Notes: a model not told the origin generated them from the letters alone. A stretch of 64,000 nt of DNA from Escherichia coli (GCF_003018255.1 NZ_CP027440.1), one strand, 5' to 3'; shown: positions 39,855-44,790, counted from the stretch's first letter. A program made the numbers and translations.

Positions 39855-42179
39855 TTACCAGGTCACATTGATACCAACTACACCCTGTAGCGGATTCTCA
39901 ATGTCGTCACCTTTGGTGTAGTCAAGGCTTGCATATGCTCCCATGTTTTTGGTGATATCAGCCTGTACACCTGCACCCACGCGGAATGCTGCACCGTCAA
40001 TGCTGGCATTGACAGACTCATCACCCAGACGGACTTTGTTGCCATCAGAGAATTCGTTCAGTGCGGCTAGATTCAGATAAGGTTTAACGGTCGCGTTGCC
40101 CACAGCGAAGTCATAACCCACGCGCGTACCGGCCTCACCCAGCACAGAGTTATAGCTGTCAGAATGAACGTCCACGCCGTTGAGTTGATAATCCACACCT
40201 TCCAGAGTCAGAGCAGACAGTTTGGCATATGGCTGAATAAACAGGCCATTACCGTCTTTCCATGTGTAACCGCCTTTAACCATCGCACCAAAACCATTGG
40301 TGTTAAAGTCAGCTTTGATGGTACCGCCACCATTCATCAGGCGAACATCTGCCGTGTTGCTGTAGTGACCAAACTGTGCAGCAGTATCAATGAAGATACC
40401 GTTGTTATACTGGCGGCTCAGGTAAGCGTGGAAGCTGTAACCTTCAGTGTCACCTTTGCTCTGCATGGTACTCATGTCACCTTTCGCAGAAGACATCGCC
40501 ACACCGGCCAGCCAGCTACCATCTTCAGTTATGAAGCGGGTATCACCACCCAGCATTACACCATTTACATCCAGGTCATAGGATGCATTTCCCGCGGTGG
40601 TATGTTTCTGTTTACCGCCAAAGTACTGAATCCATACGCCGCCCTTGTCATTTTCGCTCAGACGGACAGCATCCTGACGGGCGGAGAGCGTGTCAGCCTG
40701 CAGATTAGCAACGTTAGCCGGAGCAGCTGCCATTGCCTGAATCACGGAGCTGGCGTTGGATGCTTTATGCGTGTTTTTTACGAAATAAAAGTTACCATCA
40801 GCTCCCTGTGTCAGGTCATATTGATACAGACCACCTTCCGTTGTGCCTGTGGCTTTTAGAGTGCTGTCTTTGCCGGTAGAAATAAATGCCGTTTGTTCAT
40901 TGATAAGATCCAATGAACCCGCACTGTAAACACGCAAGTCACCGCTCGCTTTTCCGCTGATATCCAGAGTGTTTTCAGAAGAGGCATCAACAATCAGAGT
41001 GCCGTTTTGAGAAACAAACGTGCCAGTATTGACTGTAGCCTTCGTGATATTTACCGTACTGTCTTTTACTGCCAGAGCATCAACAGTTGAGGAACCCGTA
41101 ACATTCCAGACAGACCCGTTTTGCAGAGATACGTTGGCATCTCCTGCCCCTGAAACTTTGCCTTTCCAGACTGAACTATCGGAAAGATTTATATCCAGAT
41201 TACTACCCGCTTTATCGCCGCTATTGAAGGTATAAGCATTACCTTCCCAGTAAGAGCGGGCAACGTTCATGTTTACATTTGTTGTGGTACCGACTGAATT
41301 CTCGCTTTCAGAAAGGGCCAGGATATCAGAGTAGATGGTTGAATCAGCAACAGACAAATTTAAATTTTGCGTTGCTGAACCTGCGCCTTGTGCCGAAGCA
41401 GAGGCATAAATTGTTTGTTTATTATTAGCCGCCCCAATTACTGAGCCATCCTTAATATTCAGGTTGACTGTATGAGTTCCCGTATTATTCCCGGCAATAA
41501 CTATTGCTTCAATCCGACCATTAATAATATTTGAGCCAGCAAGGGTAATGTTGTCGGTTGCATCACCGTTAAAACTATTCAATAAGCTACCCTTTTGAGC
41601 AAAAATTGCCGTGGAGGCGTTGCTGGAACTCTTATTACCTTGAGCATTTATGGTTGTGCCATTAAGCGTGACATTATTTCCCTGGGCCCCTTCCAGAGAT
41701 ATCCCTGTCGCACTACCTTTTTCATTTTTTGCAACGAAATTACCGCCATTAACAACAACATCGCCAGTTGAATCAATGACCATTGCAGTCCGGGCATAGG
41801 TGCCTTCACCTTGAGCTGTGATGGTGGAGCCTGTAGCATTAATCACAACATTTTTGTCACCGCTAACTTTTACACCTTTAACGAATTCTTTATCTGCCGT
41901 TGATTCAGCAGTAATATCATGACCACCAAAAGTAACATTAAGGTCTTTATCTTCCGCATTAATTGTTGCGGCTGTAATCTGTGTAGTACCACTAATAACA
42001 ACATCTTGTTCCAGAGTTGTCTTATCTTTATCCAATGTAACCGGTGTAGTTGATACCGCGTTATCAGCAGCGAATGCTGGTGCAGAAAGAGCCATAACAA
42101 TAGCTGTTGCTAATGCGCTGCGGTAAAATGCCTTACTGTTTTTCATGAAGAAATTCTCCATTCTGGTAACTAATTTCAA
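39855..42179 (-). CDS. AIDA-I-type (type Va) autotransporter adhesin; possibly UpaB-like
   Basis: 774-aa ORF; signal peptide ...ALSAPAFA, G/T/N/S-rich repetitive passenger, C-terminal beta-barrel ending ...GVVGINVTW; alternative start at MKNSKAF. Confidence 0.8.
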   Translation of the reverse strand: MKLVTRMENFFMKNSKAFYRSALATAIVMALSAPAFAADNAVSTTPVTLDKDKTTLEQDVVISGTTQITAATINAEDKDLNVTFGGHDITAESTADKEFVKGVKVSGDKNVVINATGSTITAQGEGTYARTAMVIDSTGDVVVNGGNFVAKNEKGSATGISLEGAQGNNVTLNGTTINAQGNKSSSNASTAIFAQKGSLLNSFNGDATDNITLAGSNIINGRIEAIVIAGNNTGTHTVNLNIKDGSVIGAANNKQTIYASASAQGAGSATQNLNLSVADSTIYSDILALSESENSVGTTTNVNMNVARSYWEGNAYTFNSGDKAGSNLDINLSDSSVWKGKVSGAGDANVSLQNGSVWNVTGSSTVDALAVKDSTVNITKATVNTGTFVSQNGTLIVDASSENTLDISGKASGDLRVYSAGSLDLINEQTAFISTGKDSTLKATGTTEGGLYQYDLTQGADGNFYFVKNTHKASNASSVIQAMAAAPANVANLQADTLSARQDAVRLSENDKGGVWIQYFGGKQKHTTAGNASYDLDVNGVMLGGDTRFITEDGSWLAGVAMSSAKGDMSTMQSKGDTEGYSFHAYLSRQYNNGIFIDTAAQFGHYSNTADVRLMNGGGTIKADFNTNGFGAMVKGGYTWKDGNGLFIQPYAKLSALTLEGVDYQLNGVDVHSDSYNSVLGEAGTRVGYDFAVGNATVKPYLNLAALNEFSDGNKVRLGDESVNASIDGAAFRVGAGVQADITKNMGAYASLDYTKGDDIENPLQGVVGINVTW

Positions 42180-42187
42180 TTTCCCAC

Positions 42188-42949
42188 TTATTTATATTTA
42201 TGCAGAGATAAAGCCTGCGTCCCTGCATTTACCACCACGGAATACCTGTTGGTATTTCCGTTTTCACGCAATGTCATGGCATTCGTTGTTTCCAATGCAT
42301 TTCCATCACCGTGAAAATTATTGCTGCTCAGCAGCAGGGCTTCCCGCAATGACATGCTGTCCGGTATTCCCCAACGCTTTTTTAGCGACTGCTCGGCAAG
42401 CCATATCTGTCTTATCCCCGTTTTGAGAAACTGCGCACTGTATTCCCAGCTGTGTCCGGCAAGAAGCAACGACAACACCTTCTTTTGCTTTTCCGGGAAG
42501 CGTTCTGACATGACGATTGTCTTTGTGCGGTTATTCACCTCTTTCATAAAGACAGAGTAACTGTCCATAACTGGCAAAATTTCTGCATGTTTCAGCCCTG
42601 AAAACCCACCAGAGGCATTTGCAATACTGATGACACGCTCTACTGACATTCCTGGTTTCAGTAACCTCAGGTTTTTGAGAACGCCAGAAATACTCACATC
42701 TGGTGGCAGAAAAAAGGGTGCGACGCACAACACCACCACGAATGAGTGATCCCGATAAAATCGGAACCACATTTCAGCGCATTCGGCAGGTCGCCCTGCC
42801 GATATCACGACATTCTGTGGCCTGTGCCGCAATTTATTGCGTAACTCCTCTTCTGTTCTGATGCAGGTAACATTGCCGACAGAACCGGTTGATAGAGCTG
42901 CGAACTGCGCTGGTACAATTCCTGAGGGACAGAAAAGAACGAAACGCAT
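42188..42949 (-). CDS. LuxR-type HTH regulator (atypical, receiver-like N-terminus)
   Basis: 253-aa ORF with an HTH-like segment KQKKVLSLLLAGHSWEYSAQFLKTGIRQIW. Confidence 0.6.
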   Translation of the reverse strand: MRFVLFCPSGIVPAQFAALSTGSVGNVTCIRTEEELRNKLRHRPQNVVISAGRPAECAEMWFRFYRDHSFVVVLCVAPFFLPPDVSISGVLKNLRLLKPGMSVERVISIANASGGFSGLKHAEILPVMDSYSVFMKEVNNRTKTIVMSERFPEKQKKVLSLLLAGHSWEYSAQFLKTGIRQIWLAEQSLKKRWGIPDSMSLREALLLSSNNFHGDGNALETTNAMTLRENGNTNRYSVVVNAGTQALSLHKYK

Positions 42950-43102
42950 CCTTCCCTCACAGATGTCAGTACGCCAGCACGCTGTACAGGCTGTACAGCG
43001 TGCCTCCCAATCCTGCAGCCCAGAGCAGTAGAAATATTTTGGCTCCTACACTGTAGCGAGTCCGTATGCGCCGCAGTGGGGGGTAGTAACAACGCTGCTG
43101 TG

Positions 43103-43923: not shown

Positions 43924-43956
43924 AAACCTGACATTTTGATTCAAAATGTCAGGTTT
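43924..43956. repeat. Perfect 33-bp palindrome (16+1+16) containing the left copy of the switch inverted repeat
   Basis: aaacctgacattttga-t-tcaaaatgtcaggttt, 27 bp upstream of the LuxR regulator start codon. Confidence 0.9.
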
Positions 43957-44214
43957 GGTTTAATTGCCTGAATATTTAATTTTCTTGGAATATAAATCTA
44001 ATTTGTTTGATTTTTATTGTTTTTAATTTTGTGTTATTTAACAGCGCGAGTGAAAACTGATCACTGGTATGACCTTTATGGTTAATCATTTCAAATCATG
44101 GGGTTATTTTACTTTAGCGAGAAATATCAACATGTTATGTGTTTTATTTAATTGAATGAGCTGTTTTTTTATGGAAGAATTGAGGCAAACGTAGGAATCT
44201 GACATTTTGAATCA
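43937..44214. other. Candidate invertible DNA element (phase-variation switch): 246-bp AT-rich core bounded by 16-bp perfect inverted repeats
   Basis: tgattcaaaatgtcag at 43937-43952 and its exact reverse complement ctgacattttgaatca at 44199-44214; sits between the recombinase stop (44227) and the regulator start (43897). Confidence 0.5.
44199..44214. repeat. Right inverted repeat of the candidate switch
   Basis: ctgacattttgaatca, 13 bp from the recombinase stop codon. Confidence 0.9.
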
Positions 44215-44226
44215 GAAGGTACTGTT

Positions 44227-44790
44227 TTAACGAGGCTTTTTTTTCCACACCCCTTTAAATCGAGCAGCATTACTGGCTGTGTATCTGACAGTATGCTGAA
44301 TATTTCGATGACCCAGATAATCCTGAAGTAGTCGGGTATCGACACCATTGTCAGCCAGAGCAAATCCACAGGCATGACGTAACATATGAGGATGTGCTTT
44401 TACAGCTAATCCTGCACGTCTTCCTGCCTCACGAATGATCGAAAAAAAATGTTGTCTGCTGATAGGGCGGCGTTTCCGGGAGAGAAAAAGCCAGTCTCCT
44501 TCAACTCCATTTTCAATTAACTTCCTCTGCTTAAGCCACAACTTGATCAAATTATATTCATCAGGAAGAAGAGGATGTGTTGTCGAGAAGCCATTTTTAA
44601 TACGCCGGATATTAAGTTGTTTTCCTGATGCATCAATATCGGATAAACGTAAATCAAGAAGTTCACTGGCCCTAAAACCGTGAATGAAAGCCATCATAAT
44701 TAGACAGCGATTTCTTTCAGGAAAGGACATGCTCTGGGCTGCATCCATCAGCCTGTAGACTTCATCCTGTGTGAGATATTTTCTCGTCAT
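44227..44790 (-). CDS. FimB/FimE-family site-specific tyrosine recombinase
   Basis: 187 aa from MTRKYLTQ (ORF could extend to 44847); motifs HPHMLRHACGFALA and LGHRNIQHTVRYTASNAARF including the catalytic Tyr region, closely resembling FimE/FimB. Confidence 0.85.
   Translation of the reverse strand: MTRKYLTQDEVYRLMDAAQSMSFPERNRCLIMMAFIHGFRASELLDLRLSDIDASGKQLNIRRIKNGFSTTHPLLPDEYNLIKLWLKQRKLIENGVEGDWLFLSRKRRPISRQHFFSIIREAGRRAGLAVKAHPHMLRHACGFALADNGVDTRLLQDYLGHRNIQHTVRYTASNAARFKGVWKKKPR

Follow-up and report, generated by a model that had tools for sequence, protein, structure and literature searches.

What is the block of four genes that separates ykgH from betA in some Escherichia coli strains, and does it form a phase-variable cascade controlling a surface adhesin? 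The question was raised by a 64,000-nucleotide stretch of one E. coli genome (GCF_003018255.1, NZ_CP027440.1), referred to here as the window, in which positions are counted from the first letter. A first-pass annotation of the window, made from the sequence alone, had described an autotransporter adhesin, two LuxR-type regulators and a recombinase at this site, and had proposed such a cascade. The block is very probably the pathogenicity island PAI-X, also known as the 'UpaB cluster', with its published FimX-hyxS-hyxR/hyxA-upaB regulation. The identification rests on the RefSeq gene names, on 93-99.5% protein identity to the uropathogenic strain CFT073, and on the absence of the block from K-12.

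In a turkey isolate that is 99.9% identical, RefSeq lists the four genes as hyxB, hyxA, hyxR and ipbA, and adds that "IpbA is also known as HbiF and FimX". The same four genes occupy the same site in CFT073, with which the window is collinear over 39000-45614, and identity to the CFT073 proteins is 93.2% for HyxB, 99.2% for HyxA, 98.9% for HyxR and 99.5% for IpbA. The genes are orthologous to those of the CFT073 c0426 region and are not present in K-12. Published accounts place PAI-X and the UpaB cluster between ykgH and betA (PMC3789825, PMC4844996), and Phan et al. 2013 describe PAI-X as four genes, fimX plus hyxRAB, with hyxB also named upaB (PMC3789825). The window agrees with this description in insertion site, gene content and gene order, and carries the invertible element hyxS between fimX and hyxR. 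Coordinates of all features are collected in Table 1.

An accessory island between ykgH and betA

The open reading frame (ORF) list places the four genes on the minus strand between ykgH (39005-39673) and betA (stop codon ending at 45953), where the first-pass annotation had put them; its span of 39855-44790 runs from the stop codon of the autotransporter gene to the ATG of the recombinase gene. The same annotation had placed ykgH and betA much closer together in K-12, which is correct (212 bp in a K-12-type genome), and had estimated the interval at about 5.5 kb, which is too short. When the empty site of K-12 is aligned with the window, the insertion measures 6,080 bp; the 6-bp sequence GGATAT stands as a direct repeat at its two ends and occurs once in the empty site. 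Large parts of the block have a GC content of 36-45%, and the 1 kb upstream of the recombinase gene is lower still, at 27-34%.

The distribution of the island was surveyed in a reference set of 5,426 complete E. coli genomes, searched by megablast with window 39000-46000 as the query. The ykgH/betA flanks were matched in 5,202 genomes, but a query coverage of 80% or more was reached in only 1,533. This comparison of the ykgH-betA junction establishes the block as accessory and variable between strains, as had been suspected. The probability that the block is not truly accessory, or that its ORFs look like an adhesin-regulator-recombinase module by chance, is negligible. No supporting point was found for this explanation; the first half of it is refuted by the K-12 empty site together with the genome counts, and the second by strong family and structure matches (TIGR01414, NF007370, GerE and PDB 6BEA).

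The autotransporter UpaB

From the sequence alone, the product of hyxB had been read as a tripartite autotransporter ending in tryptophan and similar in size to the UpaB adhesin. Both points hold, and the likeness extends well beyond size: judged from its sequence, the protein is UpaB itself, because its passenger matches the UpaB crystal structure (PDB 6BEA, E 5e-248) and because it is 93.2% identical to CFT073 HyxB. A C-terminal beta-barrel is recognized by TIGR01414 (E 2e-69, residues 375-774), the C-terminus reads ...GINVTW with an aromatic last residue, and a signal peptide was assigned by eye from the N-terminus (MKNSKAFYRSALATAIVMALSAPAFA). HyxB thus combines the signal peptide, the passenger and the aromatic-ended barrel that characterize type Va autotransporters. 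The ORF called mechanically from a TTG codon extends to 42179; the annotated ATG gives the 763-residue protein.

Published work assigns the export of UpaB to the type Va pathway, and the binding of fibronectin and glycosaminoglycans to its beta-helix passenger (PMC6488583). O157:H7 genomes carry the island at a coverage of just 80%, and their annotation gives the autotransporter no name beyond 'adhesin', which suggests that hyxB/upaB is shortened or disrupted in this lineage.

The invertase IpbA and the hyxS element

IpbA (FimX, HbiF) scores 250.7 bits on the NCBIfam model of tyrosine-type DNA invertases (NF007370, cutoff 221) and is 55.6% identical to FimB and 51.9% identical to FimE. Its catalytic R..H..R..Y blocks (HGFRASE, HPHMLRH and HTV(R/W)YTAS) align with those of FimB. 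The recombinase of the first-pass annotation is a FimB/FimE-type DNA invertase, and its gene adjoins an element flanked by inverted repeats that is found in both orientations.

The adjoining element, hyxS, is bounded by perfect 16-bp inverted repeats, TGATTCAAAATGTCAG at 43937-43952 and its reverse complement at 44199-44214, with 246 bp in between; the repeat length is the same as that given by Battaglioli et al. (PMC6083910). The hyxR-proximal end lies within a near-perfect 33-bp palindrome, also present in CFT073, which would provide a recombination half-site in both orientations. The native 951-bp segment containing the element (43600-44550) is matched at a coverage of at least 80% in 1,776 genomes, and a synthetic query in which only the 246-bp interior was reversed is matched full-length in 10 genomes, one of them at 99.9% over all 951 bp. 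Because both queries are matched, both orientations of hyxS exist in nature, and the inversion breaks at the repeats. The window and the CFT073 reference have the orientation that is found in ∼99% of the complete genomes with an intact switch.

Inversion of hyxS is attributed to FimX only, and the element is reported to be OFF in CFT073 strains from which all recombinases have been deleted (PMC6083910). The hyxS interior aligns with the homologous Salmonella-type T1 switch in the same orientation only (z 3.2 vs 0.1), and the Salmonella T1 switch is predominantly OFF in deposited genomes (PMC11294581). From the OFF state of the recombinase-less CFT073 strains, the collinearity of the window with CFT073 and the T1-switch alignment in the same orientation, it can be inferred that the window switch is in the low/OFF state.

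Two further observations concern the element. The best promoter-like match found by eye within hyxS, TTGAAT-17-AAGAAT (8/12), is a candidate on the plus strand at 44141-44198 that falls below the scan threshold. Its present direction is antisense to ipbA, into the 3' part of that gene, and after inversion it would face hyxR; such an arrangement recalls the orientational control at fimS/fimE. In several genomes (e.g., RM14721, L008 4290-7310), ipbA has been reduced to its last 114 bp by an IS66-family element and hyxS stands in the minority orientation, which looks like a naturally locked state. In another genome, IS26 lies beside the inverted switch.

The regulators HyxR and HyxA

The two regulator genes appear in the literature under two sets of names. 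The published primer pCold-malE/autA-F (PMC4844996) matches 43874-43897 exactly, the start codon region of hyxR, and pCold-malE/autR-F (PMC4844996) matches 42928-42949 exactly, the start of hyxA. Because these cloning primers match the respective start codons exactly, AutA is HyxR and AutR is HyxA, with the letters A and R swapped between the two nomenclatures. The hyx genes, FimX, hyxS and phase variation are never mentioned in PMC4844996.

Database searches with the encoded proteins, which identified UpaB, the FimB-type invertase and a GerE-type helix-turn-helix (HTH) domain in HyxR (PF00196, E 3.9e-6, residues 135-181), returned no Pfam or NCBIfam match for HyxA. Pfam searches with eight members of the HyxA family and a PDB profile search were likewise empty, and sequence profiles assign no GerE/LuxR HTH to HyxA. 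An exhaustive search yielded a small family at 26-53% identity; from the word-index search, the most distant matches, P0029-P0031, and the readthrough fusions P0019 and P0028, which resemble translations of frameshifted or fused pseudogenes, were dropped. In both loci examined, the family member lies downstream of a FimB-like invertase switch.

Structural modeling gives HyxA a predicted architecture. An AlphaFold model built on the family alignment (predicted local distance difference test score, pLDDT, 77.8) combines an N-terminal (beta-alpha)5 domain with a helical domain at the C-terminus, and its best Foldseek matches in the PDB are full-length FixJ, StyR, RcsB, VraR and DesR (E 1e-5 to 1e-4). 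The positions of the acidic pocket and of the phospho-acceptor are occupied by CPSG after beta-1 and VISAGRP after beta-3; neither contains an Asp, and no such Asp is conserved across the family. Because these positions lack a conserved Asp, the N-terminal domain is predicted to be a pseudo-receiver, and the protein as a whole would be of the FixJ/RcsB type, a pseudo-receiver joined to an HTH domain. The phosphorylatable receiver and the partner kinase of a NarL/FixJ response regulator were not found for HyxA, and the ORF list contains no kinase gene within the island. HyxA behaves as a DNA-binding regulator in the experiments of PMC4844996; its membership in the LuxR/GerE family is unsupported at the sequence level.

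For HyxR, the Pfam Response_reg model gives no match, residue D53 is invariant, and the AlphaFold model is unreliable (pLDDT 48). The earlier description of two LuxR-type regulators with atypical N-termini therefore fits HyxA through its modeled architecture, and HyxR for the HTH domain only. The two had also been called paralog-like. Sequence comparison does not support this relationship: a BLASTP comparison gives E 0.27, and hhalign of the two family alignments gives a probability of 0.9%.

A resemblance between the HTH of these regulators and that of PdeL had been taken as a hint of a shared class of DNA target. Both HTH strings compared there exist, one in the 264-residue HyxR and the other in PdeL, from window position 52860 (PdeL ORF, 52749-53855). 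HyxR and PdeL align with E 3e-7 (30% identity over 93 residues), and HyxR is closer to PdeL than to the FimZ, RcsB, BglJ, EcpR and EvgA models (16-18 bits). Most of the identical residues fall within LK(I/L)LMQGMS..EI..Y..RS.KT. In NarL/GerE-type domains, the segment after KT is the DNA-recognition helix, and it reads LHAIATRALM in HyxR vs ISHQKKQLFE in PdeL, with 0/10 residues identical. The likeness of the HTH domains is thus real, but a shared DNA target is unsupported because the recognition-helix segments have nothing in common.

Control of upaB expression

The proposed phase-variable cascade agrees with published experiments and corresponds essentially to known biology, because work on FimX, hyxS and hyxR and work on AutA and AutR at the upaB promoter combine to give it. 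As summarized in PMC6083910, PMC3789825 and PMC8777976, Bateman & Seed 2012 reported that FimX inverts hyxS and thereby sets hyxR expression high or low. Zhuge et al. 2016 studied the "UpaB cluster" of avian pathogenic E. coli (APEC), located between betA and ykgH, by electrophoretic mobility shift assay (EMSA), in vitro transcription, deletion and complementation (PMC4844996). In that study, AutA activates the upaB promoter (PupaB) 9.2-fold in vitro, AutR blocks this activation, and both proteins shift a PupaB probe covering -170 to +30 in EMSA (PMC4844996). Deletion of autR raises upaB ∼37-fold in a manner that needs autA, and the autA autR double mutant is back at the wild-type level (PMC4844996). 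When the probe definition in the supplement is transferred to the window, relative to the upaB ATG, the probe takes in the 3'-terminal part of hyxA as well as the 41 bp that separate it from upaB; a promoter and terminator consensus scan of the hyxA-upaB region gave nothing useful.

Taken together, the published results give the following sequence of events. IpbA/FimX flips hyxS, located between ipbA and hyxR, and so sets hyxR high or low. HyxR (AutA) binds the upaB promoter inside the 3' end of hyxA and activates it, and HyxA (AutR), binding the same DNA, cancels the activation. The state of the switch would then pass through HyxR to the amount of UpaB at the surface; in the accessible literature, no published test of the effect of switch orientation on the amount of UpaB was found.

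Several points weigh against this reading. Single deletion of autA (hyxR) left upaB transcription unchanged in vitro, and reverse transcription PCR (RT-PCR) detected no co-transcription over the three intergenic gaps (PMC4844996). FimX and hyxS do not appear in that study. Other papers (including PMC11294581) term hyxRAB an operon, in conflict with the RT-PCR. The ON/OFF assignment and the promoter position rest on secondary accounts and inference, and the state cannot be read from the sequence because a scan of both strands of the switch found no sigma-70-like promoter at its threshold.

The conflict over the operon bears on a somewhat unlikely alternative, in which the ON-orientation hyxS promoter drives one hyxR-hyxA-upaB transcript and UpaB is phase-variable by co-transcription, not by HyxR binding at PupaB. 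The three genes share a strand and are separated by gaps of 153 and 41 bp, a "hyxRAB operon" is named in several papers, and the Salmonella T1 switch is reported to regulate genes past two intervening ORFs (PMC11294581). This direct read-through is opposed by the RT-PCR, which found no transcript over any of the three intergenic regions, and by the in vitro transcription of a separate PupaB fragment (-170 to +400) that responds to AutA (PMC4844996). The cultures used for RT-PCR were presumably in the majority (OFF) orientation, and read-through in ON cells would still be compatible with the result.

The unchanged upaB level after autA deletion, set beside the ∼37-fold rise after autR deletion (PMC4844996), would fit a different arrangement, in which the switch sets only a global HyxR regulon (hmpA, capsule, acid resistance and O-antigen length) and UpaB is set essentially by HyxA repression and other inputs. 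The published hyxS/hyxR phenotypes, which are nitrosative stress and macrophage survival and not adhesion (PMC3789825, PMC8777976, PMC6083910), point the same way. However, the 37-fold rise requires AutA and disappears in the double mutant, AutA both binds PupaB in EMSA and activates it, and a higher HyxR level in ON cells would be expected to increase UpaB, provided that HyxA does not go up as well. Such a separation of the two modules is clearly unlikely.

The cascade in which hyxS acts on upaB through HyxR, opposed by HyxA, remains the preferred reading, and upaB is one of several targets of the two regulators. The literature lists as further HyxR/HyxA targets hmpA and nitrosative stress, the K1 capsule, the acid fitness island and O-antigen chain length, and hyxA and hyxR mutants show altered O-antigen chain length and serum resistance (PMC3789825).

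Non-coding features and junctions of the island

Table 1. Features of the island in the window, from the ykgH side to the betA side
Feature	Coordinates	Strand	Basis
GGATAT direct repeat, left copy	39776..39781	.	Alignment with the K-12 empty site
PAI-X / 'UpaB cluster' (very probable identification), 6,080-bp insertion, absent from K-12	39782..45861	.	Megablast, empty-site alignment, literature location
GC-rich, perfect 12-bp hairpin, CCTGCAGGCAGC-ATACT-GCTGCCTGCAGG, 39 nt 3' of the upaB stop	39788..39816	-	Read from the sequence
hyxB = upaB, type Va autotransporter adhesin, 763 aa	39855..42146	-	ORF; RefSeq coding sequence; TIGR01414; PDB 6BEA; CFT073 HyxB 93.2%
PupaB probe region, -170 to +30 relative to the upaB ATG; hyxA 3' end and 41-bp gap	42117..42316	-	Computed from the probe definition (PMC4844996 supplement)
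hyxA = autR, 253 aa, predicted pseudo-receiver and divergent LuxR-type HTH	42188..42949	-	ORF, RefSeq, primer, AlphaFold/Foldseek
hyxR = autA, 264 aa, LuxR/GerE-type regulator, upaB activator	43103..43897	-	ORF, RefSeq, Pfam GerE, primer
Near-perfect 33-bp palindrome, hyxR-proximal switch end; putative recombination half-site in both orientations	43924..43956	.	Sequence; also in CFT073
hyxS invertible element, 278 bp, CFT073/majority orientation	43937..44214	.	Perfect 16-bp inverted repeats
ipbA = fimX = hbiF, 187-aa FimB/FimE-type tyrosine DNA invertase	44227..44790	-	NF007370, RefSeq name, FimB/FimE alignment
AT-rich non-coding DNA, ∼1.07 kb, 27-38% GC, from ipbA to the betA-side junction	44791..45861	.	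Composition, ORF and Rfam scans
GGATAT direct repeat, right copy	45862..45867	.	Alignment with the K-12 empty site

The hairpin behind upaB is likely its transcription terminator; it lacks a T-run and was not listed by the consensus terminator scan. At the other end of the island, the AT-rich DNA upstream of ipbA contains no ORF of at least 60 aa and no Rfam family at threshold (a sub-threshold match to an IS102 RNA has E 0.3), and it has no similarity to the long upstream region of fimB. It is presumably the promoter and regulatory region of ipbA.

Both junctions show local variation. The outer flank of the left junction (39752-39784) reads ATATCCAG...CTGGATAT and forms an inverted repeat ending in GGATAT. 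Its K-12 counterpart is AAGCCCGC, and the island-side flank differs between island-bearing and empty-site genomes. The betA-side end of the AT-rich region (45614-45702) is variable between island variants, including in comparison with CFT073.

Relation to other invertible loci

The window shares the ykgH-betA site, the four genes and their order with the PAI-X islands of the uropathogenic E. coli strains UTI89, CFT073 and EC958 (ST131), and with CFT073 also the 16-bp repeats and the switch orientation. It differs from these reference strains by allelic changes only, of which those in UpaB are the largest (93.2% identity), and by the betA-side junction at 45614-45702. The 'UpaB cluster' of APEC DE205B and APEC O1 (PMC4844996) is the same locus under other names.

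The ipuS-ipuR-upaE module of CFT073 (PMC6083910) follows the same design, in which one or more FimB-like invertases are combined with a small invertible promoter element, a regulator of the LuxR type and an adhesin of the autotransporter class. Unlike the hyx locus, it lies on a different island and is composed of different genes, its repeats are 7 bp long, and it has no second regulator of the HyxA type. Two recombinases are encoded within the ipuS module, and ipuS is a substrate for four of the five Fim recombinases, whereas FimX alone acts on hyxS. Identification of the window locus as ipuS-ipuR-upaE was rejected; RefSeq names and the literature place hyx and ipbA here, and ipuS on another island. 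The fimS switch of type 1 fimbriae, controlled by FimB and FimE, uses the same recombinase family and also works by promoter inversion, and FimX acts on fimS as well. However, its 9-bp repeats have little similarity to those of hyxS, it drives the fimbrial operon directly and not a regulator, and the upstream regions are dissimilar.

The closest relative of IpbA found (71.7% identical) is the 188-aa invertase of a T1-type locus (L006), in which the invertase is followed by a switch, a 73-aa ORF, a HyxA homologue (39% identical) and a galactofuranose-type polysaccharide/ABC-transporter cluster. The 16-bp inverted repeats of this locus begin with the same TGATTCAAAA as those of hyxS and stand directly after the recombinase stop codon. 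The same arrangement is found in the Salmonella T1-antigen locus STM0716-STM0718 (PMC11294581), again with a HyxA homologue downstream of the switch. Unlike PAI-X, T1 loci carry polysaccharide biosynthesis and ABC-export genes as cargo and no autotransporter, and the 73-aa ORF takes the place of hyxR. The similarity of the Salmonella locus to PAI-X was already remarked upon by its authors (PMC11294581).

A switch-less allele of hyxS

In strain E371 (L003 1790-1870), only 58 bp separate the hyxR start from the ipbA stop, and hyxS is precisely absent. A single copy of TGA-A-TCAAAATGTCAG connects the flank on the ipbA side with that on the hyxR side. The exact junction is present as one contiguous match in at least 60 complete genomes, many of them from poultry. 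Among the 76 records at least 99% identical to the window segment, the switch is intact and oriented as in the window in only 23 and inverted in one, and by subtraction ∼52 are switch-less. The switch-less form appears to account for about two-thirds of the genomes with the window's own allele. One switch-less example is 97.9% identical, which suggests a second genetic background for this allele.

The structure of the element offers a possible route to its loss. Because the hyxR-proximal site is a near-perfect palindrome, it can pair with the ipbA-proximal site in direct register as well, as a 15/16-bp direct repeat. Recombination in this register would delete the 271-bp switch and leave hyxR 58 bp behind ipbA. 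Excision might be carried out by FimX itself, or the same deletion might arise by replication slippage on the direct repeat; the product of site-specific excision would carry the junction CAGTACCTTCTGAATCAAAATGTCAGGTTTTG.

No mention of a switch-less allele was found in the accessible literature, and hyxS excision goes unmentioned in the SVRE study of Fim-mediated rearrangements. It is proposed, tentatively, that hyxS has a third, irreversible switch-less state, which may have been selected as a fixed state of HyxR/HyxA/UpaB expression and may not be an accident.

Significance of the locus

The island, the switch, the regulators and the adhesin are already known from work published between 2008 and 2019, including a crystal structure and regulator-promoter biochemistry. 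The present analysis makes small additions, namely the equivalence of AutA with HyxR and of AutR with HyxA, the predicted fold of HyxA, the census of switch orientation and the switch-less allele. Two literatures have described the same genes under different names without citing each other, and the published primers now tie them together. HyxA, a protein that sequence profiles leave without annotation, is modeled as a pseudo-receiver joined to an HTH domain. In avian and extraintestinal E. coli, the switch-less allele would fix the expression of a regulon with a bearing on adhesion, the capsule, serum resistance and tolerance of nitrosative stress.

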